A DNA stretch of 64,000 nt from the IMG/VR virus record IMGVR_UViG_3300037067_027643, positions 221,745 through 285,744 of that record. One strand, given 5' to 3'. The position numbers and the translations under genes are program-made. The stretch comes from a virus. Its lineage: Duplodnaviria; Caudoviricetes. This document shows positions 5,230 to 62,148 of this stretch, piece after piece. The notes beneath the pieces are model-generated. The model was not told the DNA's origin. It did not search any database and saw nothing but the letters and a program-made list of their open reading frames with translations. Position 1 is the stretch's first letter. Every line of letters starts with the position of its first letter.

Positions 5230-8084
5230 ATGTTCGAAAAGATAGGTTACTTCAAAGAATACTATATCAACAATCGATTTATTGGTACTGTAACTCCATG
5301 TGAAAAAGATAGAGACGAAGTTGGATACTATAGTCGTAAAGATGAAGTATTAACTGATACAGTAATATTAGATAATAAAAAAAGAATTAAAAAAGGAACA
5401 CTTGGAGTTCATACATTAATATATCCATTGTTTGGAAAATTAATAAAATAAATTTGGTTATATAAAAAATATTTATTAATTTTGTAAAGTTAAATTAAAA
5501 ATAAAAACAATGATAAAAGTAAATAAATACCCAGAACAAAAATCAATTAATAGATATTTTGATGATTTAGAAGAATGGGAAAATAGTTTTTCATGTAATG
5601 AATGTGGTTGTGATAATATTACAGACTTCACTTATGACAGAACAGTTGCAAATGGCGAAGTTTGGATTTGTAAATATTGTAAAACAGAAAGACTTGTAAA
5701 AAATAAACCAAATGAAGATAGATATTAATATTAACAACCTGATATAAAACAAATGACAAAATTTAAACTAAATTCAGAAATTACTATAAGTGCTTATACA
5801 GAAGTAGAAGCTGATACATTAGAAGAAGCAATTGAAATAGCTAAAGAAAGATCAACAATGGAAATACCAATTAATAGTCTAGCAGATGTTAGTGAAGAAT
5901 GGATTGTAGATGAAATAGATGGTATGCCAGTTAATATACATGAAACTGAATAAAATTAATTGATAATAGTTAAAAATAACTTAACCCGGAAAAATATATG
6001 TCAGGAGTAAAAGACAAAGTATATTCTATTATTAATTAATTTTTTAAAATATAAAACAATATGTCAAAAGCAAACGATACCAGAAAAGAAGCATTAGCAT
6101 GGTGGGATAATATTCCATTTAATTCATCTAATACAACTATAAGTAAAACTCATTATACTAATAAATATTTTGAGGGTAGAAAATATAATAGTTTAACAGG
6201 AAGAGAAATAGAATTGATTTATAATGAACTATGTAAATGTCCTCATTGTGGATATATAAGAAAAAATATATCAGGTCTATGTCCAGAATGTTGTATATTT
6301 CCACCAACAAATAATATTTTAAAATAATTTAAAACAGATAAAACCTATAAAAATGAACTATAACATTATATCATTAGCAGAAGATATAGAATCTATATCA
6401 ACCATTCTAAAAATAAAAAAGACAGAATTTACAGAAAATTTTTATAAAAATGTAAATTATTCTAAGATGTCATTTTCAGAAATAAAACAATTAAATTTAG
6501 AATATCAATTAAAAATTAAAGAATTGGAAGATGACATTTATAAAAAATATCATACTAGTAAAAGATTAATTAAAAACAATTAAATATGATAGAAGATAAT
6601 AATATTATACAACTCAAAGGAGCTTCTAAAAAAGATAAAGTATTAGTGAAAGAAATTCTTTTAAATAGTTACAAAGAATTAGTAAATGAAATTGAAAAAG
6701 AAGCAGACTATTGTGATGTAATTGGTTATTGGAAAGATAATATACCAACTAGTAAACCAATAATAACAGCTAAGGAATTTATTAATATATATAAAAATTT
6801 ATTAGATAAATAAAATGTATAAACCAAAGTTATTCGATACAGCAACAAGTCTAGAAGACTTTATAAGAAGATATCAACCATCTAGTTGGTGTGAACCTAT
6901 TCAATCTTGTAGTTTTGTTCCATACTTTACAAATGAAGAATATGAACAAATAAAACAAGGAAATTATGTTATTCGATATAGACCATTAACTTGGTTTGAA
7001 AAAGAAGCAATAGTAGAATTTTTTAAACAACTTCACAAGAAAAGATCTTAGAAGATTGGAATAAAAGTAAAGAATATGACAATATAGGACCAACGGTAGA
7101 AGAATTTTTAAAAGTATTAAATCATGTTGATACTGGTGATATTATAAAACAACAGATAAAAGACTTAATTGAAATATATAAACTTAAATTAGATTCTGTT
7201 AATAAAAGATTATGTTCTTGTTATTCAGAAGACTTGGATGATTTTAGGTTTTGTTACGAAAATATAATAACAGAATTAACAAACATATTAGAAAACAATA
7301 AATAAAACATTATGAAAACAAGAACAAAATTATTTTGGATATTTACATTCTACTTCTTTTTAGGAGGTAACTTAGGTGGTGTAATATTTGCTATAACTAT
7401 CCATTTAAATTTATTAAATTATATATTAAATATAATAGCAATAATAGGATTAATAATATCTTCGTTTGGTATAGACTGGGTAACATGGCCAGGTAACGGA
7501 TATCATTTTAAATGGAAGAACATATATTCATTTGTTATATATTTTAGAAATTTAAAATCGAAAGAATATACATTAAAACAAAAATTTGATTGTATTAATA
7601 AATTAAGAGTAGCATTACAGGAAGATGAAAAAGAACAACGGCATAATGCATTTCTTTGTAATCAATTGTACCGTTTAGGTATTATACAAGATAATAAAAT
7701 TAAATATGTTTTAGTTATATTTCCAGAACTACATAATATAATTATTAAATATATAAAAATTTATAATTCATGTATGATATCTGCAATATCATGTGGTGAA
7801 GATTATGGAACAAGATATAAACTTTTAGATGAATTAGAAGCTCAATTAAAAAATAAATAATAATTATGAAAAACCTATTAAAAAAGATAATATGTAAATA
7901 TTATTCTTGGCGTGATGATATTGTCTTTGAAAAGGGATATGAATATTTAAAGATTACTCATACCGAATTAGATCAATTAGAAACACATCATCGTATATTA
8001 TTAGATGACGGATATAAAAAAGTTAGTGATGTTAACTGTAATTTTTCTAAAGCATGGTGTTGGTATAGAAAACCAAATAAATAA
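5230..8084 (+). other. cluster of small hypothetical early genes, incl. Zn-ribbon proteins 5510-5728 and 6061-6327 and membrane protein 7312-7860
   Basis: Abutting ORFs; paired CxxC motifs; hydrophobic N-terminus in 7312-7860. Confidence 0.65.
5453..5484 (+). promoter_or_regulatory. Bacteroidota-type -33/-7 promoter
   Basis: TTTG-N20-TAATTTTG. Confidence 0.8.
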
Positions 8085-8371
8085 TATAACAATATTATTA
8101 AACATCAAAATCGACCAAACCCTAAAATTCATCGACGGCATATAAAAATTTATCAAGGGTTCTAGAGGTACTATGTATAACAAGGTACTCTTACTACACT
8201 AGGATTACCGAGAATTGTCCCACATGTAAATCGGACATCAAAAATTATTTAAAATTTATTTCGACTAAACAACAATATTTAACGATTAAAATATTTTGAA
8301 AAGTAGTTGAAATTTAAAGGAAGAAATAGTCAAAAATTGTTAGAATGTTATAAATTAACAATCTAACTAAT

Positions 8372-8499
8372 ATTTGTATATACAAATGTTTTTAATAAAA
8401 TCGTGCTTCACATAGGCCGTAAAACCAGTATTTCAAAAAACTAAAATATTAATAATCAACAATCTAGTTTTAAGATAATAATCATTTGTATATACAAAT
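8372..8499. repeat. two copies of a perfect 16-bp palindrome ATTTGTATATACAAAT
   Basis: 8372-8387 and 8484-8499 in non-coding DNA. Confidence 0.85.
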
Positions 8500-8530
8500 A
8501 TCACCATCTATAAAAATAAATGAAAATAAA

Positions 8531-8562
8531 TTTGGTAATGTGATAAATTATTCTTACTTTTG
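8531..8562 (+). promoter_or_regulatory. Bacteroidota-type -33/-7 promoter
   Basis: TTTG-N20-TACTTTTG. Confidence 0.8.
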
Positions 8563-9227
8563 TATTGTTAAATTAATACTAAAAAATAGACAATATGTGT
8601 AAAATAGTAATATCATCAATTAGAAAATTTAACGATAATGGTATCATTCGAGAGGGGATGGTTCACGGTAAATTTAAAGAAAAATCATTCATTGTTGTTG
8701 TCAAAAACTTTGAAACAAATGAAGAAGAAGACTTTATTGTCAACGAAACCGATTTCATATAATTAGTATTAACAAGTAAATAACCAAGTTATGTTATATA
8801 CCAAAGAATTTTATGAAGTAATGGACTTCTTCGAAAACAAAGCCTCTAAAGAAATGTATATAGAAGGATCATTAACAAGAGAAGATCGAGAACAATGGAA
8901 GAGACAATGTTACTATACAAATGGAAATGCAAACAATTATTTCAAAATGTTTTTAAGTGGATATCAATTAGGTAAAATAAGTTAATATTATAAAAATAAA
9001 ACATCATGTCAGTAATAACAACCGCAGATGAACATATAACCAAAGCTAAAGAACTTATATCAGAAGCCTATAAAAATTTATTAGTAGTACTAGATGAAGA
9101 AACTTGGGGTCATAAAGACTATAATGAAACATTTTTAGACAATGTACAAGAAGTAGCAATGGAACTATTAAAATTAAAAAGAAAATTATAATAAATAATT
9201 TTACTACACAATCAAACGAAAACAAAA

Positions 9228-9340
9228 ATTTTGTTAAATTTGTAACAATTTTTCCGGATTTTGTTAAATTTTTAACAAATTTGTTATAACACATTTATAA
9301 TCAATTAATTACAAGAAAATATTTTGTTAAATTTGTAACA
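9228..9340. repeat. three 20-bp direct repeats ATTTTGTTAAATTT(G/T)TAACA with internal dyad TGTTA-N6-TAACA
   Basis: 9228-9247, 9258-9277, 9321-9340; related TGTTATAACA at 9282-9291. Confidence 0.85.
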
Positions 9341-9797
9341 CTTTAAATAATTAAAAATCAAACGATTATGTGAGAAAAAATTAAAACTTTATCTGCTTAG
9401 TGTAAGTAGGAAAACACGTCGCTTAAAAACGTTGGTATTAGTATGTTATAAAGTACGTAGATGTAACTAACTGATAATCAATGGGTAAACGCAACTAAAT
9501 TTCGCATTTTCCTAATACATAATCATCTCGAATTTTTCGAAAATTATCTATTAAAATAACCATACCACACACTAATCTATAATATACGTAATAAAAAATC
9601 TTTAATTCAATGTATTATAAAACAGTCAATAAACCAGTTAAAAATTACGTCGATTCACCTCTTTTTCTTTAATATAACCACTTATAAATTCAATTATACA
9701 ATATAGTATATAATCAATCAAAGTACCCGTAAATCTAATCTAATTAAGTTATATAATACAATTTGTTTTACCTAATAATATTAATTAAATAAAATTT

Positions 9798-10121
9798 GTG
9801 ATAGCATATAAATTATTCACTGTGAGAAAGAATGGAACAATTGTATCATTATTTATAAATCGTAAATATGTCATTCCTATTAACGAGTGGTTAGTAGCAG
9901 AAACCGAACATCATACTAAGGGATATAAATACAGACCTTATTGGCATTGTTGTTCTGAACCTGTTGCTCCTCACCTCGGTATTAAAAATCGTTGTTGGTA
10001 TAAAGTAGAGATTCAAGATTATATAAAATTTGATAGACCTATTAATCAGGGAGGAACGTGGTATCTAAGTAAGAAAATGAAGGTACTATATCCAATGATA
10101 GTAGAATATGTTAATAAATAA
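9798..10121 (+). CDS. conserved-looking hypothetical phage protein
   Basis: GTG start; AYKLF...YRPYWHC...QGGTWYL motif pattern. Confidence 0.6.
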   Translation: MIAYKLFTVRKNGTIVSLFINRKYVIPINEWLVAETEHHTKGYKYRPYWHCCSEPVAPHLGIKNRCWYKVEIQDYIKFDRPINQGGTWYLSKKMKVLYPMIVEYVNK

Positions 10122-11930: not shown

Positions 11931-13193
11931 ATGAAGATAAATATAAATTTAGTAAAAGTCGTCCCAAAGTCCATCAATATTAGCAACCGTGATAATAATT
12001 CATTTGCGGTATGTGTTTATGGTCAACCATCAGAAGAAATCGAGCAATGGATCAATTACCATCAATTTAAATCGGAATACATTGATAACTATACCAATAT
12101 ATTTATTCCAAATGATACAGTATTATTATCTGATATATTTTTAGATGCTAAATGTTTTGAATGGATGGATAGCTTTAGTCCCAATCTTAATAAAGAGTTA
12201 CATATTGGACATTTTTCTAACCTTGTATTAGGAAAATCTTTTAAATCGTTAGGTATTTGTAAAAAGACAGTTAGTATATATGGTGATACATTAAATGATA
12301 TTAATAAAGATACTATAAGTAAAGCAGAAGCACTAATTCAAATACATTATTATTTAAAACAATTCGAATATACAGTAAATAAAATCCTATTAGCTTCTCA
12401 GGTTAAATATTCTGATAAAAATGGGATATTAAAAGATGGTACTGATAAGTATCAGGGTTGTAAAATATTCGAAATTGATAATAGTAGTGGTAATAATAAT
12501 GAACCAACAAAAATAGTGGCCGTTAAAAGTGATGGAAGTTCTTCTTATTTTTATCAAGATGTAGCGTTGTGTGAATTATTAAATAGCAGTTCTACATTAT
12601 ATTTAACTGGTAAGGAACAATGTAATCATTTTTTATCTCTTAAACAATTATATCCTGGTATAGAGCATATTGGATTAGGACTGGTTAATGTTTTTGGTAA
12701 TAAGATGTCTAGTAGAAAAGGAAATGTTATATTGATTAAAGATTTTATACAATGTGTACAAGAATTATTTGATAATAATATTCAATTAGTATATAATGTA
12801 TTTGCTGGTTATATATTAAAATCTTCTCCTGAACAAGACAAGGAAATAAATTCTGACTATTTAAACAATCCTAAAAATTCATCCGGGTTATATATTAGTT
12901 ATACCACTGCTAGGTTAATAAGTGCTGGTTGTGATTTAATTGATAATAATAGTAATAATAAATATACTTTTATTTCAAAACAGTTAGAATTTGCTTATTT
13001 AAAATCTAAGTTTAATTTAAAGCCAAATATATTATTCGAATCTTTAGTTGAACATTGTAAATTGATAAACTCATTATATGCTACTCATATTATAAAAGAT
13101 AATAGTGATAATAAAAATATGTTTAATTTATTATTGTCTGATTTAATATATGGATGTAAAAAATTAGGATTATTTATTATTGAAAAGGTATAA
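11931..13193 (+). CDS. argS: compact arginyl-tRNA synthetase-like protein (class I aaRS)
   Basis: SPNLNKELHIGH (HIGH), KSDGSSSYFYQDVA, YLTGKEQCNHF, GLV..KMSSRKGN (KMSKS), GLYISYTTARL (anticodon-binding domain), all in ArgRS order. Confidence 0.88.
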   Translation: MKININLVKVVPKSINISNRDNNSFAVCVYGQPSEEIEQWINYHQFKSEYIDNYTNIFIPNDTVLLSDIFLDAKCFEWMDSFSPNLNKELHIGHFSNLVLGKSFKSLGICKKTVSIYGDTLNDINKDTISKAEALIQIHYYLKQFEYTVNKILLASQVKYSDKNGILKDGTDKYQGCKIFEIDNSSGNNNEPTKIVAVKSDGSSSYFYQDVALCELLNSSSTLYLTGKEQCNHFLSLKQLYPGIEHIGLGLVNVFGNKMSSRKGNVILIKDFIQCVQELFDNNIQLVYNVFAGYILKSSPEQDKEINSDYLNNPKNSSGLYISYTTARLISAGCDLIDNNSNNKYTFISKQLEFAYLKSKFNLKPNILFESLVEHCKLINSLYATHIIKDNSDNKNMFNLLLSDLIYGCKKLGLFIIEKV

Positions 13194-18390: not shown

Positions 18391-19200
18391 ATGAACAAAG
18401 ATACACTAGGTGATAGAATGAAAGACTATTACGAAAACAGAACTCGTATTAGCCTTCCAAGAAGAAGCTATACTATTATTAGAATTGATGGTAAAGCTTT
18501 TCACAGTTATACCAAAGGATTAAATCGCCCGTTTGATGATGGTTTAATCGAAGATATGGATTCTACTACTGCTTATTTGTGTAAAAACATACAAGGAGCT
18601 AAATTTGGATACGTTCAAAGTGATGAAATTTCTATACTGCTTTGTGATTTTGAAGACATAGGAACTCAAGCTTGGTTTGATAACAATATTCAAAAGATGT
18701 GTAGTGTATCGGCTAGTATGGCTACAAGTAAATTTAATCAACTAAGATTGATGAGAACAGCTAAATGTGGATTCGATTTGTTAAATGATTGTAAATCTCA
18801 AATATTTGCTATTCCATTAATTCATGATATGTGTAATAAAAAATTAGCAGAATTTGATAGTCGAGTATTTCAAATACCATCCAGTATCGAAGTTGAAAAT
18901 TATTTTATCTGGAGACAACAAGATGCTACTAGGAACAGTATTCAATCTGTAGCACAATCATTGTATAGTCACAAAGAACTAAATAATAAAAATTGTGATC
19001 AGCTACAAGAAATGATATTTCAAAAAGGCATTAATTGGAATGATTATCCAAGTAAATATAAAAGAGGTAGAATAATTAGTAAGGAAACATATACCAAAGA
19101 TAATACTAACAGAAGTAGATGGACAAATATAAACAACAATGAAATACCAATATTTACACAAGAAAGAGAATTTATTAGTAATTTAATCCCAAAGATATGA
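18391..19200 (+). CDS. thg1: tRNA(His) guanylyltransferase Thg1 / Thg1-like 3'-5' polymerase
   Basis: IRIDGKAFHSYT, RPFD, YVQSDEIS, FDSR, YFIWRQQDATRNS, GINWNDYP..KRG. Confidence 0.95.
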   Translation: MNKDTLGDRMKDYYENRTRISLPRRSYTIIRIDGKAFHSYTKGLNRPFDDGLIEDMDSTTAYLCKNIQGAKFGYVQSDEISILLCDFEDIGTQAWFDNNIQKMCSVSASMATSKFNQLRLMRTAKCGFDLLNDCKSQIFAIPLIHDMCNKKLAEFDSRVFQIPSSIEVENYFIWRQQDATRNSIQSVAQSLYSHKELNNKNCDQLQEMIFQKGINWNDYPSKYKRGRIISKETYTKDNTNRSRWTNINNNEIPIFTQEREFISNLIPKI

Positions 19201-40611: not shown

Positions 40612-41138
40612 TTTGGTAGTGTGAAATATTATTTGTATATTTGTAGTGTTAAATAATTAATTATATGAAAAATATATTATTTTGTAATAATGAAACTTGT
40701 AAATTAAAAGATAGCTGTTTTCGTTTTTTGAACGAGAATCCAAATAGTAAAAATTTATTTAATTTAAAAAAAGACATTTGTAATAATTATATAAAATGGA
40801 ATAAAGATGGTTGGGATATTAATGTATTAGTTGATTCTATAATAAAATTCAAATAAATTTGGTTAATTCAAAAATTATTATTACTTTTGTATCGTTAAAT
40901 AATTAAAACAATAAACAATATGAAAACATTTAAAGTAAAATTTATAAATCCAAATACTAATAAAGAAGAATACAGATTTTTAGACATCTTTATCAATAAT
41001 GATTATGATGTAGAATTACAAGTAAAAACGGTATTTGAAACTAGAATTGCTTCTTTAGAAACATTTATTTCTTACAAAGAAATAAAATATACATATAAAA
41101 AATAAATTTGGTTATATCAAAAATAATAATTACTTTTG
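40612..41138 (+). promoter_or_regulatory. three tandem Bacteroidota-type promoters (40612-40643, 40858-40889, 41107-41138)
   Basis: Each is TTTG-N20-TAnnTTTG and precedes one small ORF. Confidence 0.85.
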
Positions 41139-45530: not shown

Positions 45531-46271
45531 ATGACCATTTTAGAAAAAGCAAAACAACTATCAAATATTATAGTAGTAGGTGATACTCATGGTAAAATAA
45601 AAGAACTAGGTTATAATATCAGAGAAAGATATAAAATAACTGATAGTATTATATGTTTAGCTGGAGATATTGGATTAGGGTTTAATAAACCAATGTATCA
45701 TTTAAATGAATTTAAATATTTTAATGAAATAGCCAAAAAAACAAATAATGTAATTTTTGTAGTTCGCGGTAATCATGACGATCCAGAATATTTTAATGGG
45801 CAATGTTTTGAATATAGTAATGTTAAATTAGTTCCAGATTATTATTTTTTGGAAACACAGATATATGATATTTTATTTGTTGGTGGTGGAATTAGTATTG
45901 ATAGAACTTATAGGACATTAGGTTCTACTTATTGGATGAATGAATTTCCTGTATATCGAGAAGATAAACTAAAAATAATCGATAAACCAGATATTGTTAT
46001 TACTCATTCCGCTCCAACTTTTTGTCACCCAACAGATAAAATTGGATTGTTAGAATGGTCAAAACTTGATAAACAACTATTAGAGGATTGTGATAAGGAT
46101 AGAATGGTATTTACAAAAATATTTGACTATCTTAAAAACAATAATAAACAGCCTAAGCATTGGATCTATGGACATTTTCACATGTCATATAATCAATTAA
46201 TAGATGGAACACAATTTAAAGTTTTGAATGAATTGGAGATGTTTGAATTAAACAAAAGAAAAGATTTTTAA
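45531..46271 (+). CDS. calcineurin-like metallophosphoesterase
   Basis: GDTHG, GDIG, RGNHD, GGGISID, ITHSAP, YGHFH. Confidence 0.92.
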   Translation: MTILEKAKQLSNIIVVGDTHGKIKELGYNIRERYKITDSIICLAGDIGLGFNKPMYHLNEFKYFNEIAKKTNNVIFVVRGNHDDPEYFNGQCFEYSNVKLVPDYYFLETQIYDILFVGGGISIDRTYRTLGSTYWMNEFPVYREDKLKIIDKPDIVITHSAPTFCHPTDKIGLLEWSKLDKQLLEDCDKDRMVFTKIFDYLKNNNKQPKHWIYGHFHMSYNQLIDGTQFKVLNELEMFELNKRKDF

Positions 46272-46653: not shown

Positions 46654-48591
46654 ATGGATAAAGAACAAAGAATTAGCGAACTTGTAAATATATTAATAGA
46701 AACAAACGAATCCTATCGTTTAGGTACTCCATTAATAAGTGATAAAGAATATGATTTGTTAATAGACGAATTAACAGAACTAGATCCCGAAAATCCGTTT
46801 TTAAATAAAGTAGGAATAGAACTACCAAACAATGATAGTCGTAAAGAAAAACTACCTGTTAAATTAGGTAGTATGAATAAAGTTAAAACCGTAGCAGAAA
46901 TTCATAAATGGTGTCGATCAAAAAATATTCCATTAGATGAATATGTAGTATTAACTGCTAAATTAGATGGTCTTACATTAGAAACATTTGGTATAAATGG
47001 AAATGCTTGGACTAGAGGAGATGGAGAATTTGGACAAAACAGCAAAAAACATTATGAACAGATAAAAATAAATAATGATAAACATGTTTATCCAGATGGA
47101 GATGAAAACAGATATACTATTGGAGAAGTAATTATATCAAAAAAAGTATTTGAAGAAAAATATAAAGATCAGTTTGAAAATCCAAGAAATGCTGTAAGTG
47201 GATTATTAAATTCTGACTATGATCCTAAATTAAATGAAAGATTATTAGATTGTAGTTATATAAGATATAATTTAGTTGATACTGATATTCCTAATGATTA
47301 CAGTAAAGCTAATATGATTGGTATTTTAAATGAAGATTATAATACAGTAAAAATTCCATGTAAAGTATTAAGAATTAATGAACTTACAGAAGAACTATTA
47401 TTAGATCTATTTACTAAGTGGAGTACAGAATATGAAATTGATGGAATTGTAATTGAAGTAAATGATTGTGAATTAAGACAAAAACTAGGACTGGAAACCA
47501 ATTCATTAAATCCAGCTTACGCAAGGGCTTACAAAGGAAATTTTGAAGAAGTAGGCGAAACAAAAGTATTAGCAATTAAAGAAGATATTTCAAAACAAGG
47601 ACATGACGTTCCAGTAGCAGTATTAGAACCAATTAGTTTAAATGGAGTCACTATTACAAATGTTACCTGTAACAATATGAAACAGATACTTGATATGGGT
47701 ATAAATATCGGATGTACTGTAAAAATAAAAAGAAGTGGAATGGTTATACCTTTTATTATTGAAGTTACTAAACCAAATGGAACATATCAATTACCAACAC
47801 GTTGTCCTTCTTGTGGATCAGAATTAACTTGGAATGAAAATAATGTACATTTAGTTTGTAATAATTCCAATTGCAAAGAAAAGCAAATTAAACAGATTAT
47901 ATCATTTTTTAGTATTTTAGATGTAGATGGACTGAGAGAAGCAACATGTAGACTATTATACGAATGCGGATTTGATACCGTTAAGAAAATATTATTAATG
48001 ACTAAAGAAGATTTCTTATCACTTCCAAGTTTTGCAGAAAAGAAAAGTGAAACATTATATAATGAAATTCAAAAGAAAATCTCAAACGTTGAATTAGGTG
48101 TTTTAATGCACGCTACATCAATATTTAAAAGTCTTGGTAGTAGAAAGTTATTAGAGTTAACTAAACAGTTTAAAAACAATAAACCCTCAGTAAATGAAGT
48201 TAAACAGGTAGAAGGATTTTCTGATATCACTGCAAATGAATATGTAAATAATTTTGATCGAGTAATGGAGTTTATTAATGACTTACCATTAAAATATAAA
48301 GAAATAAATAATAATATTAATCATTTAAATAATAACAATATGGAAACAAATAGTAGTGTATTAAAAGATCAAGTATTTGTGTTTACTGGAATTCGTAGAG
48401 CAGACTTAGAAGATGTAATTAAATTAAATGGCGGAGAAGTAGGAAGTGGAGTAACAAAGAAAACTACATGTTTAGTAATGAAATTATTAGGTAGCGGTAG
48501 TTCAAAAGAAAAGAAAGCTCAAGAAATGGGAATTGAAATATTAACTGTTGAACAGTTAGAAGAAAAATTCGAAAAATTAGGATTATTGTAA
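46654..48591 (+). CDS. ligA: NAD-dependent DNA ligase
   Basis: Y..G.PLISDKEYD (domain Ia), KLDG, TRGDG, NPRN, DGIV, OB fold, Zn finger CPSC..C..C, HhH region, C-terminal BRCT (VFTG..GVTKKT). Confidence 0.96.
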   Translation: MDKEQRISELVNILIETNESYRLGTPLISDKEYDLLIDELTELDPENPFLNKVGIELPNNDSRKEKLPVKLGSMNKVKTVAEIHKWCRSKNIPLDEYVVLTAKLDGLTLETFGINGNAWTRGDGEFGQNSKKHYEQIKINNDKHVYPDGDENRYTIGEVIISKKVFEEKYKDQFENPRNAVSGLLNSDYDPKLNERLLDCSYIRYNLVDTDIPNDYSKANMIGILNEDYNTVKIPCKVLRINELTEELLLDLFTKWSTEYEIDGIVIEVNDCELRQKLGLETNSLNPAYARAYKGNFEEVGETKVLAIKEDISKQGHDVPVAVLEPISLNGVTITNVTCNNMKQILDMGINIGCTVKIKRSGMVIPFIIEVTKPNGTYQLPTRCPSCGSELTWNENNVHLVCNNSNCKEKQIKQIISFFSILDVDGLREATCRLLYECGFDTVKKILLMTKEDFLSLPSFAEKKSETLYNEIQKKISNVELGVLMHATSIFKSLGSRKLLELTKQFKNNKPSVNEVKQVEGFSDITANEYVNNFDRVMEFINDLPLKYKEINNNINHLNNNNMETNSSVLKDQVFVFTGIRRADLEDVIKLNGGEVGSGVTKKTTCLVMKLLGSGSSKEKKAQEMGIEILTVEQLEEKFEKLGLL

Positions 48592-57555: not shown

Positions 57556-60360
57556 ATGGAAAATAAAATTAAAAGAATTGACATCAAAGAATTTCGTGAA
57601 AAAGGATATTTACAAGAATTAAATAGAAGATTTTTACATCCACTTGGTTTAGCATTAGAAATAGTTGTTAATGATGATGGAACCGAAATTCTTGGAGGAA
57701 TATGGGACTATAGAGAAGAAAAAGAAGGAATATATTATGATATTTCTAATTCAGATTCTGAACGTAAAATAAAATTTAATAAAAATAAATCATTTATTGA
57801 TAATGAATTAGAAACTAGATGTCAATATAGAAAAGAAATACTTGGCTTTGGAATAGAACTTATAGATTAGATTTTTATTGTATGGAAACTATTTTTGTAA
57901 TAGCTGTTATACTCATAGGAATTTGGGGTATCATAGTATTATTAAGTGATAATGAATAAAATTTAAAATTATGGAAGAAAATAAAAAACCAACAATTTAT
58001 GATGATTATTTAATTAGAGAGAAAGATGGTCGTAAAATTAAAAGAATTCACTTATTATTTGTAGATCATAAATCAGAACCATTACTTTGTGATTGTTGTG
58101 ACAAGGTAAAACAATTAGCACATTTTGAAGATATTTTAGGAAATGTTTGGTGTATATGTAAAGATTGTTTGCAAGAAATGATTAATGAATTTGATTAAAT
58201 ATGGAAAATAAAAATTATACAAAGAAAAATGCAAAATATCGAGGAGTGCCATGTTGGTTTAATCCTTTAAATAATGAAATTAAAGGTAAAAATAAACTAT
58301 ATGATATATTAATTGATATTTTAGTTTGGTTTGATATGAATGTTTTTATAGTAGATGAATTTCCAATTTGGGTTGAAGTTGACGAATTAGAAAAATAAAT
58401 ATATAATTATGAATAACTGCGAATATTGTGGAACAAAATTAACAGATAATAATATAACCAATTGTAAAAATTGTGGAGCTCCAATTAAACAAACCGTTAG
58501 TGAGGAAATGGTATTTAATAATGACGATTGTTTTGGGTTACCACATTTTCATAATACTAATAAATTGCTATCAGGAATAATTTTACCGCATATAATAGAT
58601 AAATCAAAAATTATAATAATAGAACCTTTAATAACATATGAATAATCAATTTGAATTTACATATCATTGTCCGGAATGTGATACAGAATTTCAGTCTGAT
58701 ATTGGAATTAAATTAAAATGTCCTGGTTGTGGTATATTATTAGAAACAGATTGGACAGAAGATGAACTTGATTATGGAATGGTAGAAATGACACCATGTT
58801 GCAGAGTAATAGAAAATGATAATAAATAATTTAAATAAGACTTAAAATATGAATATAAGCGGAGCGAACCCAGCATTGTGGAACAAGACAGAAAAATCAA
58901 AAACTAAATCAACTACATCAAAAACAGTTGTAGAAACTAAACAATTAAATTGTAGTAATGAAATAATAGAACTACAAAATATCATTGATAGAATAGAAAA
59001 ATTAAGATCAGCAAATCCACATAAATATTTACATGATAGTGAAATAAGTCTTAATTTAGCATTATTATCTCTTAAACAAATAAATTAAAATTATGGAAAT
59101 ATATACAAGTGATTTAACAAATTTAGCAACTGATTATGCTGGTATAATTGAAAGAAAAATAAATATGAATAATGGTAAATTTGATTATATAATTCAAGAT
59201 GAATGTTGTAGCTTAATGTCAACAACAAGAAAATTATTATATACAAGATTATCAGCATCATTTAATACTTTAGTAGAACAATCAAAAACAGATAAAGATT
59301 TTGATTTAAAAACTAATTTATTTAAAATAATTAATGATTTATAAAAATTAAACAAAACATGATTAAAAAAATTAAATGTTTATTTGGACAACATACATTA
59401 GGTAAACAAGGAGAAGATGATAAACATTTTTACTTACATTGTCATAATTGTAACCATTTCAAAAAAGTTTTGAAAGAAGATATTAATAATTATAAATTAT
59501 ACGGATCAATTAAACGTCCAACCAGCCTTCAAATTAAACTTAGAAATTTTCTTAAAAAACACAAATTATATTATAAATTTAAATTATACAATTTTATATG
59601 AAAACACTAACATTAACAGAATTATTAAAATTATTAGGAACAACTCCAAAACAAATCAAATTAATAACTCTTACTGATGTTAAACTTAAAAAGAATACAG
59701 TATTTACAAATCCAATTAAAAAACTATCAAATGCTATAGTTGAAGTGAATTTTGACTATAAAACAGATGTAAATGAAGCAAGAAAATTGGAAGGAATTAA
59801 AGAAGAATTTACAGCATCGTCAAGAAAATGGGGTAAACATATTGAAGGATCAACTTGTTTAATAGAACATGAAACCACTAAAGAAAAATATTTAAATTGT
59901 AAACTAATTTCAAAAGATAAAAAAGTTGAATATATTGATGGTAGTAAAACAACTAATCCAATTCCAATTGAAACTATTCAACCTTATTTACCAGCTGTCA
60001 GTCCAAGTAAAACACAGGGAGTAGAAAATCAAATTGTAATTAATACATATAAACTTTCAAGTATTAAGGAAATTGAAATTGATAATGTGAAATATACATT
60101 TATTCCAACTGATAAAATTTAAAAATATGAAAATTTATAAAATAACCGAATATTGTTGTAAACCATTATATTATAAAAATAAAATACAAGCTAGAAAAAT
60201 ATTTGTAGATATTGCTGTTAGGTATTGGAAAGAACATCAATTGGACGATAGAGATTTAGAAAAATTACCTTGTGGTGGAGAACAATATGTTGCTGATAGA
60301 TTTTTATGTAAAGATGATGCAAAAGTAATATCTAAGATGGAAATAATAAATGTTTTATAA
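57556..60360 (+). other. cluster of small hypothetical genes, several Zn-ribbon (57971, 58409, 58638), plus 59598-60122
   Basis: Abutting ORFs with paired CxxC motifs. Confidence 0.65.
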
Positions 60361-60366
60361 TAATAC

Positions 60367-60566
60367 AAACAACTCTAAACCACCTTCTCTAACCGCCGAT
60401 AGTTTGTTCATTTCAACTAGATAAATAAAATGAAAACTCCTGTACCCTTGTATATAATTAAGTTTATAGAAACTCGGATCGGTTCAGCAGGAAATAAAGG
60501 GGTAGAAAAGAGAGAATTATTAAGGTAGCAACTGCGGATATGCTAATCTAAGTGGAAGAGTTGTTT
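60367..60566. ncRNA. candidate structured non-coding RNA (~200 nt)
   Basis: GC-enriched intergenic island closed by AAACAACTCT/AGAGTTGTTT with several internal complementary segments; family not recognised. Confidence 0.6.
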
Positions 60567-61239
60567 TTAAATAATAAAAGATAGTTGTATAATTACATAA
60601 AATCTGTTAAGATACAACTGTAAAATAACAAAAATTTAAATTATGAAAAAATTATTCAATAAATTAAAAGCGAAATTTCAAATAAACCTAACGACATTAT
60701 CTGATATTTTTGGATTAACACCAGAATATCTGTTTTATATACTATTAGGATTATGTTTAATGCTAAGTTACTTGTCAATACTAATTTTTAAAATATTTTA
60801 AAATTATGGAATATTCAATTACAATAAAAGAATTAATAAAAAGACCGATTATCAGAAACGATCAACCAACTGAATTTCTAAATAAAATGACAGATAATGA
60901 AATTGAACAATGGGAGAAAGAAGTTGAACAAGAATTATTAGAGAATGGGGTTAAACGAAAATTTCCAGATTGGAATGCTGAATTTTTATCTAAAACAATT
61001 GATATGCGTATTTTTTATAAATTATTTAAAAAAGAATACTATGAAACTAAGTAGTCAACAAATCCATGATAAAGCACATCTAATTTATCGAGTAAGAAGA
61101 GAATTAACAGATGATATTTATAAATTAATTGATAATTTTCATTCTACAATTGAACCAGATTATAAGAAATTAAGCAAAGATGATATAATATATGTATTAT
61201 CATTAATAATATCAAAAGAAACAGAAAAAATTTAAAATT

Positions 61240-62148
61240 ATGGCACTTTTAGGCATAAATGGTTACCTCCAGAGTGGGAAAGATACAGTAGGAAAGATAA
61301 TACAGTATCTCATAGCTAATGATAAAGAAGAATACAACCAATATCAACCAACAATATATGAGTTCTTAGAAGGTAAAGATGTATATAGTACAATATATAA
61401 GGTAAATTATGATGTGGTAGAAAGTGTTACAAATGATAGTGGATATAAAATTAAAAAGTTTGCTGATAAGTTAAAAGATATTGTATGTTTATTGATAAAT
61501 TGTACAAAAGAACAGTTAGAAGACAATACATTTAAATCAAAAGAACTCGGTGAAGAATGGTGGTACTATAAACATCGTAATATAGATAATTATAATTTAT
61601 TAACAATAGAAGAATATAATGAATTACCTTATCTTCACCAGGAATATTTTAAATTAATTAAATTAACACCTCGTTTATTATTACAACTAATAGGAACAGA
61701 CTGTGGTAGAAACATTATTCATCCGAACATCTGGGTGAGTAGCTTATTTAGTGAATATGATTATAATTTTCATGCTATAAAATTTAGTGTTAGACAAGGA
61801 ATAAATAAACCAGAATATCCTAACTGGATCATTACAGACACTCGTTTTCCAAACGAAGCAAATGCTATTAAAAATAGAGGTGGAATACTTATTAATGTTC
61901 AAAGAGATGAGTGTCCTAAATGTGGTAATACAACAAATCATCATTACAATAAAAATAATACTGGAAAATTAGAATCTATTTTATGTAACGAATGTGGTAC
62001 ATTTTTTAGAGAAAATTCTCATGAATCAGAAACAAGTCTTGATGGTTATAAGGGATTTAATTACCTAATTGATAATAGTGGTACATTAGAAGAATTAATA
62101 GAACAAGTAAGAGAAATTTTAATAAAAGAAAAGCTAATTAAAAAATGA
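61240..62148 (+). CDS. deoxynucleoside monophosphate kinase (T4 gp1-like) with Zn-ribbon insertion
   Basis: GYLQSGKDT, FADKLK, TPRLLLQLIGTDCGR, IW, ITDTRFPNE, HESE, IDNSGT; insertion CPKC...CNEC. Confidence 0.9.
   Translation: MALLGINGYLQSGKDTVGKIIQYLIANDKEEYNQYQPTIYEFLEGKDVYSTIYKVNYDVVESVTNDSGYKIKKFADKLKDIVCLLINCTKEQLEDNTFKSKELGEEWWYYKHRNIDNYNLLTIEEYNELPYLHQEYFKLIKLTPRLLLQLIGTDCGRNIIHPNIWVSSLFSEYDYNFHAIKFSVRQGINKPEYPNWIITDTRFPNEANAIKNRGGILINVQRDECPKCGNTTNHHYNKNNTGKLESILCNECGTFFRENSHESETSLDGYKGFNYLIDNSGTLEELIEQVREILIKEKLIKK

Follow-up and report, generated by a model that had tools for sequence, protein, structure and literature searches.

What kind of element occupies a GC-rich, stem-enclosed gap in an array of small phage genes? 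The gap belongs to an IMG/VR phage record of 285,744 bp with a GC content of about 24.4%, and the final 64 kb of this record (64,000 nucleotides) were analysed in our study and are referred to as the window. The initial annotation had described here an island of about 200 nt, closed by a terminal stem and folded into two potential pseudoknots, and had proposed it as a candidate novel noncoding RNA (ncRNA). The gap, 282 bases long, was delimited from the ORF lists and six-frame translation, and its features are collected in Table 1. The genes around it are small ORFs, all on the + strand and packed end to end, and those flanking it gave no family match and are regarded as ORFans. The product of the downstream 52-aa ORF has a basic N-terminus in addition to its hydrophobic half.

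Table 1. Features in and around the gap, with positions numbered from the first nucleotide of the window.
Feature	Position	Strand	Remarks
Upstream 77-aa ORF	60127-60360	+	From ORF list
Noncoding gap	60361-60642	+	Between the 77-aa ORF and the 52-aa ORF; from ORF lists and six-frame translation
Closing stem, 5' arm (AAACAACTCT)	60367-60376	+	Imperfect repeat runs outward to 60350
CCAC, second stalk block	60380-60383	+	Pairs with GTGG at 60552-60555; pair probability 0.6-0.94
Weak A/U hairpin TTCATTT...AAATGAA	60407-60434	+	dG -1.9, z -0.23; 3' arm shares bases with the start ATG of the 32-codon ORF
32-codon ATG ORF (MKTPVPLYIIKF...)	60430-60528	+	Probably not translated
Small hairpin TAGCA...TGCTA	60526-60545	+	dG -4.1, z -0.36; pair probability about 0.9
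Closing stem, 3' arm (AGAGTTGTTT), then TTTAAAT	60557-60566	+	Imperfect repeat runs to 60583
Stable hairpin, 10-bp stem AUAGUUGUAU/AUACAACUGU	60581-60621	+	Followed after 21 nt by the start codon of the 52-aa ORF
Downstream 52-aa ORF	60643-60801	+	C-terminal half hydrophobic; possible regulated gene

The island had been noted as visibly richer in GC than its surroundings, and the measurements bear this out, with a GC content of 0.29 for the gap and 0.33 for positions 60361-60575 against a window mean of 0.245. The latter segment stands at about the 97th percentile among the 215-nt windows of the analysed stretch. For comparison, 62 gaps that measure 100 nt or more and carry no ATG ORF were collected from the 286-kb genome. 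The true intergenic gaps elsewhere in the genome have GC contents of 0.08-0.25, and among the 62 gaps values above 0.27 were found for tRNA arrays, for stretches with non-ATG or partial ORFs and for the island alone. The island, at 0.29-0.33, resembles the tRNA-array gaps of the same phage (0.34-0.38). Without constraint, DNA as GC-rich as this would not be expected to last in this genome, except where it is of recent origin. Moreover, three-base periodicity is absent in the gap (GC by phase 0.30, 0.32 and 0.37, versus a GC3 of 0.05-0.17 in the neighbours), which argues against a native gene as well as a freshly decayed one. That the segment is noncoding, compositionally anomalous and enclosed by a stem is established by the analysis; a folded ncRNA is not established by the data. 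Another stretch of the same genome, C1:48810-49195, lies outside the window, has a GC content of 0.32 and no ATG ORF, and contains two open pieces of frame on the - strand, possibly those of a gene that is interrupted or frameshifted.

All the pairings that had been listed for the island were recovered at their positions, the final stem being shifted by 1 nt. The two arms of the closing stem (60367-60376 and 60557-60566) form a perfect 10-bp complement, and a helix of this kind was found in 1% of the dinucleotide shuffles of the 200-nt core. In its extended form the repeat is matched at 22 of 27 positions, which was equalled by 3 of 1000 shuffles and by 13 of 1017 window controls of the same geometry. 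The stalk, consisting of these 10 bp and the 4-bp CCAC/GTGG block (which has no statistical weight by itself), showed a pair probability of 0.66-1.0 in both the 321-nt and the 675-nt sequence contexts. The downstream hairpin is stable for its composition (dG -11.2, z -3.43, with none of 200 shuffles equally stable) and it is kept in the centroid of the 321-nt fold. The hairpin and the closing stem have an ACAACT/AGTTGT core in common. The broader motif A[AT]ACAACT, which was defined post hoc after inspection of the data, occurs 4 times within 254 nt (60367+, 60559-, 60583- and 60612+) and 62 times in the 286 kb, where it forms no second cluster. Features at p of about 0.01 are to be expected somewhere when the whole 64-kb window is inspected.

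Two other arrangements were observed. On the - strand the downstream hairpin is followed by a U-rich tract, and a near-consensus sigma-70-type promoter (TTGACA-17-CATAAT, 11/12) lies antisense inside the 52-aa ORF at 60778-60750; this layout resembles a type I toxin/antisense pair, although the promoters used by the hosts of this phage are of another type. Elsewhere in the window, a perfect 16-bp inverted repeat with a 100-nt spacer (8370-8385 and 8486-8501) is located just upstream of the promoter at 8531, and, once GC content is allowed for, no other fold in the window is as stable (- strand GC-adjusted score -5.15).

The interior of the island is ordinary in the shuffle tests. The initial annotation had set as a check that the fold should be better than those of composition-matched shuffles, and the + strand reaches a z of only about -0.7 (whole-domain MFE z of -0.67 and -0.74 in two shuffle tests), with a rank of 289 among 1595 in the window-wide scan. 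The interior sub-domains gave z values from -0.4 to +0.4, and the domain taken with its flanks and the 3' hairpin gave -1.85. The claimed H-type pseudoknot, TCCTG/CAGGA interleaved with TACCCTT/AGGGGTA, cannot be upheld as a special feature, since crossing helices of 5 bp and 7 bp are present in 95.5% of the shuffles; the region 60436-60506 has a z of +0.44. Its 5' strands abut, leaving a first loop of 0 nt, and such a loop is sterically unfavourable in the geometry of H-type pseudoknots. Both proposed pseudoknots and most of the interior helices are as expected from shuffled sequence. The 200-nt core does contain 26 perfect helices of at least 5 bp, compared to 14.2 +/- 3.6 in shuffles; this excess arises mostly because a pyrimidine-rich 5' part faces a purine-rich 3' part. 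A G-U pair in the pseudoknot had been taken as weakly favouring the + strand, and the energies speak against this argument, the - strand folding better (-45.2 versus -39.2 kcal/mol, - strand z of -2.0). Against a - strand transcript, however, no conserved promoter points that way and all the local genes are on the + strand. Of the proposed fold, the bounding stalk and the 3' hairpin alone survive the shuffle tests.

The island was further compared with known kinds of element. The earlier statement that it could not be assigned to tRNA, tmRNA, RNase P or a known small ribozyme was supported: ARAGORN reported 0 tRNA or tmRNA genes, including in its relaxed, intron and mitochondrial modes, and the Rfam 15 covariance models, which include ribozymes, riboswitches, 6S, Y RNA, pRNA, group I/II introns and phage motifs, gave no match in the whole window at gathering thresholds. 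With the Rfam limit relaxed to E <=10 over 60200-60750, the sole match was WsnRNA46, with 15.3 bits against a threshold of 65.3 and E = 6. A ribozyme or a riboswitch-like RNA had also been suggested, and nothing points to either. Several other identities were tried and rejected. For a retron msr-msd RNA, no RVT_1 match was found in the 286-kb record. A phage-driven inverton was discarded on the lack of a TAnnTTTG-type promoter in the gap and of any Phage_integrase or Resolvase match in the phage, and the orientation of the inverted-repeat segment is identical in a second assembly; a host enzyme could still supply the recombinase. An attP site was dismissed, the phage having no integrase or resolvase. 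Of the parts of a leader-peptide attenuator a mini-ORF is present, while an upstream promoter is lacking and 59500-61500 contains no terminator-like site. A split gene or intron was set aside with the downstream ORF extendable by one codon only and stops in all frames. A mimic of a CRISPR repeat (GTTGT...ACAAC hairpin) was also rejected, with 18 chance GTTG-N-CAAC strings in the genome and unrelated coding matches in a pattern scan. No likeness was seen to the TnpB cassette of the genome or to any other internal copy.

The setting of the gap in the transcription of the phage was examined through its promoters. A strongly conserved early promoter of the Bacteroidota type (-33/-7) was recognised as AAAATAAATTTGG-N-TGAAA-N-TAnnTTTGTA, or in shorter form ...AAATAAATTTGG-N-TAnnTTTGTA, and it is located 20-45 nt upstream of many gene starts. 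The search pattern TTTG-N19-21-TAnnTTTG gave 53 matches genome-wide, of which about 35 were well conserved by our own count. The window holds 14 of the matches on the + strand, including those at 5453, 8531, 17210, 19960, 25266, 27339 and 36229 and further ones at 40858, 41107, 42724, 46279 and 62388. In the window scan the pattern had no match between 46279 and 62388, a stretch which includes the gap, and this fits read-through transcription across the gap. It suggests a unit of about 16 kb which is read through or driven by another promoter class. Some further features of the window and the record were observed. A noncoding stretch of about 600 nt (9192-9797) precedes a 107-aa ORF with a GTG start (9798-10121) and carries three TTTTGTTAAATTTGTAAC-like boxes (near 9228, 9262 and 9324), possibly operator repeats. 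Enzymes of RNA and nucleotide metabolism are encoded at 11931-13193, 18391-19200, 45531-46271, 46654-48591 and 61240-62148; the set comprises an ArgRS catalytic-domain-like protein, a Thg1-like tRNA-His guanylyltransferase, a metallophosphoesterase, an NAD-dependent DNA ligase and a dNMP kinase, and suggests functions in tRNA repair or maintenance. The ends of the record are classed as 'provirus' by IMG/VR, although its 286 kb show no detectable recombinase of the tyrosine or serine type. The same phage is also present on a separate contig of 318 kb, and the label 'provirus' is possibly an artefact.

Relatives of the locus were sought at the protein and the nucleotide level. Searches of the flanking proteins against IMG/VR and a set of 5.8 billion proteins returned the identical copy only, and the neighbouring 174-aa protein matched itself alone among the 5.8 billion. 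The sole other copy of the locus (ENA ERZ27247358, L010) shows 100% identity along the 321 nt compared. The samples in which the phage is present are the IMG/VR source sample, ENA ERZ27247358 and SRR18595300. For the dNMP kinase and the ligase, relatives were found at 30-45% protein identity, the closest ligase being at 30%, and the two dNMP kinase loci that were compared showed no synteny with the phage locus. A BLAST search against the phage collection gave no match to the island, and within the phage neither a second copy, nor partial similarity to it, nor any shared intergenic motif was found. Exact and gapped DNA patterns run through IMG/VR, the JGI metagenomes and 185,579 GTDB genomes returned chance matches with unrelated interiors, and BLAST against 401 Bacteroidota genomes gave short A/T-rich matches only. 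An identical stretch of 19 nt, present once in each of two related Bacteroidales metagenome-assembled genomes, was judged to be due to chance.

On this evidence the leading single reading, a tentative one, is that the island is a stem-enclosed, untranslated RNA segment of a + strand polycistronic transcript, which takes part in processing, stability or translational control. No host-type promoter was found in or near the island, so it would most likely be transcribed within the + strand polycistronic RNA. Its ends are predicted to pair as a stalk of 10 bp and 4 bp, possibly lengthened by A/U pairs, which would enclose the GC-rich interior, with the second stable hairpin standing shortly before the start of the next gene. 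The segment would most likely act as a cis-acting RNA element. The double-stranded stalk could serve as a processing or stability site of the RNase III type, or the segment could be a structured leader which governs how the downstream 52-aa membrane-type protein is translated. A small RNA might also be released from it. The double-pseudoknot fold has no part in this proposed explanation. The reading as RNA is supported by the noncoding nature and the high GC of the gap, the above-chance repeat and hairpin, the pairing of the stalk and the number of helices, as well as by the + strand neighbours and the promoter-free stretch; transcription of the island, its strand, any function at the RNA level and any processing are inferred. 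It is weakened by a + strand MFE at shuffle level, by ordinary sub-domains and by searches that found no homologues. The occurrence of the same core in both helices weakens it further, as this is not predicted by base pairing alone and fits protein-binding sites or a duplication. The proposal of a candidate ncRNA is retained in so far as it rests on a noncoding segment of odd composition with an above-chance stem and no known family; its pseudoknots and interior fold are given up. A stronger form of the proposal appears unlikely, namely an undescribed structured RNA of the phage, about 200 nt long and closed by a 5'/3' stalk, which would be excised from the polycistronic transcript and act in trans in a Bacteroidota-type host. 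The part suggested for such an RNA, for example as a protein decoy or a regulator during infection, is likewise doubtful.

Among the alternatives, the absence of any function is somewhat unlikely. The island would then be a compositional fluctuation or young spacer DNA, and its stems chance complementarity picked out by eye. This agrees with the shuffle-level fold of the + strand, with the frequency of pseudoknot-like crossings in shuffles and with the uniqueness of the element to this phage. Inverted repeats of 10 bp separated by 100-300 nt are also common in the AT-rich window, with 142 overlapping 10-mer matches that correspond, by our count, to about 85 distinct repeats, of which about 8 have at least 3 G/C. 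However, the other true intergenic gaps all stay at or below a GC of 0.25, unconstrained DNA in this genome should drift AT-ward, and p is about 0.01 or lower for the repeat, for the hairpin and for the four-fold motif alike. A coding origin, either as a small protein gene (60430-60528) with structured flanks or as the stump of a decayed gene, is very unlikely. The earlier remark that the island has no ORF holds for ORFs of at least 33 codons, the longest being the 32-codon ATG ORF. The start context of this ORF, ATGAAAAC (longer form AAATAAAATGAAAAC), is the gene start favoured by the phage, where 40 of the 68 such sites begin an ORF of at least 50 aa, and the gap is comparable in length to one neighbouring gene. 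The ORF has a codon score of 0.16, which is below those of the long genes; among random small ORFs it would rank between the 75th and the 95th percentile. Against translation, its GC3 is 0.28 compared to 0.05-0.17 in real genes, no periodicity is seen anywhere in the gap and very rare codons are used (CGG at 0.3 and CCC at 0.9 per thousand). Moreover, the 28 short ORFs at ATGAAAAC sites are close to the about 25 expected by chance from our composition-based estimate, and an exhaustive HMMER search of 1.84 billion proteins matched the ORF just to a spurious tandem-repeat protein.

The remaining two alternatives address the inverted repeats as DNA, and both are judged quite improbable. A foreign or mobile remnant, similar to a MITE, with imperfect terminal inverted repeats and no RNA function of its own, could have inserted just past the stop of the 77-aa gene. 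The ends of the island do form such repeats, with the 22 of 27 matches around a 10-bp perfect core, its GC is above that of the phage without any periodicity, and ATAATAA is present on both flanks (60357-63 and 60571-77), which could be a target-site duplication. This flank repeat is of low complexity, however, and an extension of the inverted repeat is an equally good reading of it. In addition, several related copies in some genome, as known for MITEs, were not found in the phage, GTDB, IMG/VR or Bacteroidota genomes: the phage has one copy, no sequence in the 185,579 GTDB species genomes or in IMG/VR combined these termini with a related interior, and nothing was detected in the 401 Bacteroidota genomes. 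The matches to the terminus pattern (30 and 4) are unrelated inside and agree in number with chance, about 34 being expected in the genome collection by our own calculation. Alternatively, the CAACT-core boxes may form two inverted pairs bound by a phage or host protein, as in an operator, a partition-like site or a recombination site. Binding sites predict the identical core seen in both helices, and they account for the isolated cluster of four A[AT]ACAACT copies, to which a fifth near-copy, AGCAACTG, can be added at 60527. The weight of this cluster is reduced by the choice of the motif after data inspection. Further, the neighbouring ORFs have no recognised DNA-binding domain except for weak zinc-ribbon matches 1.5-2 kb upstream, tyrosine and serine recombinases are lacking in the phage, no promoter is there to be controlled, and the GC-rich interior is left unexplained.

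If the preferred reading as an RNA-level element holds, the island would be a new orphan structured RNA of the intercistronic or leader type in a phage, of a kind already known; nothing in the data speaks for a new class, or for a riboswitch or ribozyme. It would provide an orphan cis-acting or small RNA for a lineage of giant, AT-rich phages that is very poorly known. Moreover, a GC island without codon periodicity would be a usable flag for functional RNA in AT-rich phage genomes. At present it stands as a single-sequence candidate, and its exotic-looking pseudoknots are at chance level.

The features of the island can be compared with several known systems. Among the jumbo phages with ncRNAs reported from RNA-seq is Pseudomonas phage PA5oct, with four such RNAs (PMC7318152). 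The island, in a phage genome of about 286 kb, is likewise an orphan noncoding locus; the PA5oct ncRNAs are defined by transcripts, the island is known from its sequence alone, and the two phages are unrelated. The likeness to MITEs and Correia-like miniature elements lies in the length of about 200 bp, the imperfect terminal inverted repeats, the intergenic position and the odd composition. Unlike these elements, the island is single-copy, has no relatives in the searched collections and shows an ambiguous target-site duplication. In comparison to a riboswitch or 5' leader with a P1 helix, it is also an untranslated domain of about 190 nt with paired ends upstream of a gene, and as in a structured leader a further hairpin is placed near the start codon of the next gene. 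It differs from a riboswitch in having no Rfam match at E <=10 other than the subthreshold one above, no terminator and no obvious sequestering helix, and its interior fold is at shuffle level with no family to define an aptamer. Stalks of the RNase III type and structured intercistronic spacers are represented by the early-region sites of T7 and by the rRNA-operon stalks flanking 16S and 23S; between phage genes, RNase III-type sites serve in processing or stability. At the T7 sites the structure is a local hairpin of about 60 nt, whereas the island is a 190-nt enclosure with a stalk of 14 firm bp, predicted computationally. In common with RNase III-type stalks, its flanks are predicted to pair around an enclosed segment which lies between genes of the same strand and has no promoter of its own.
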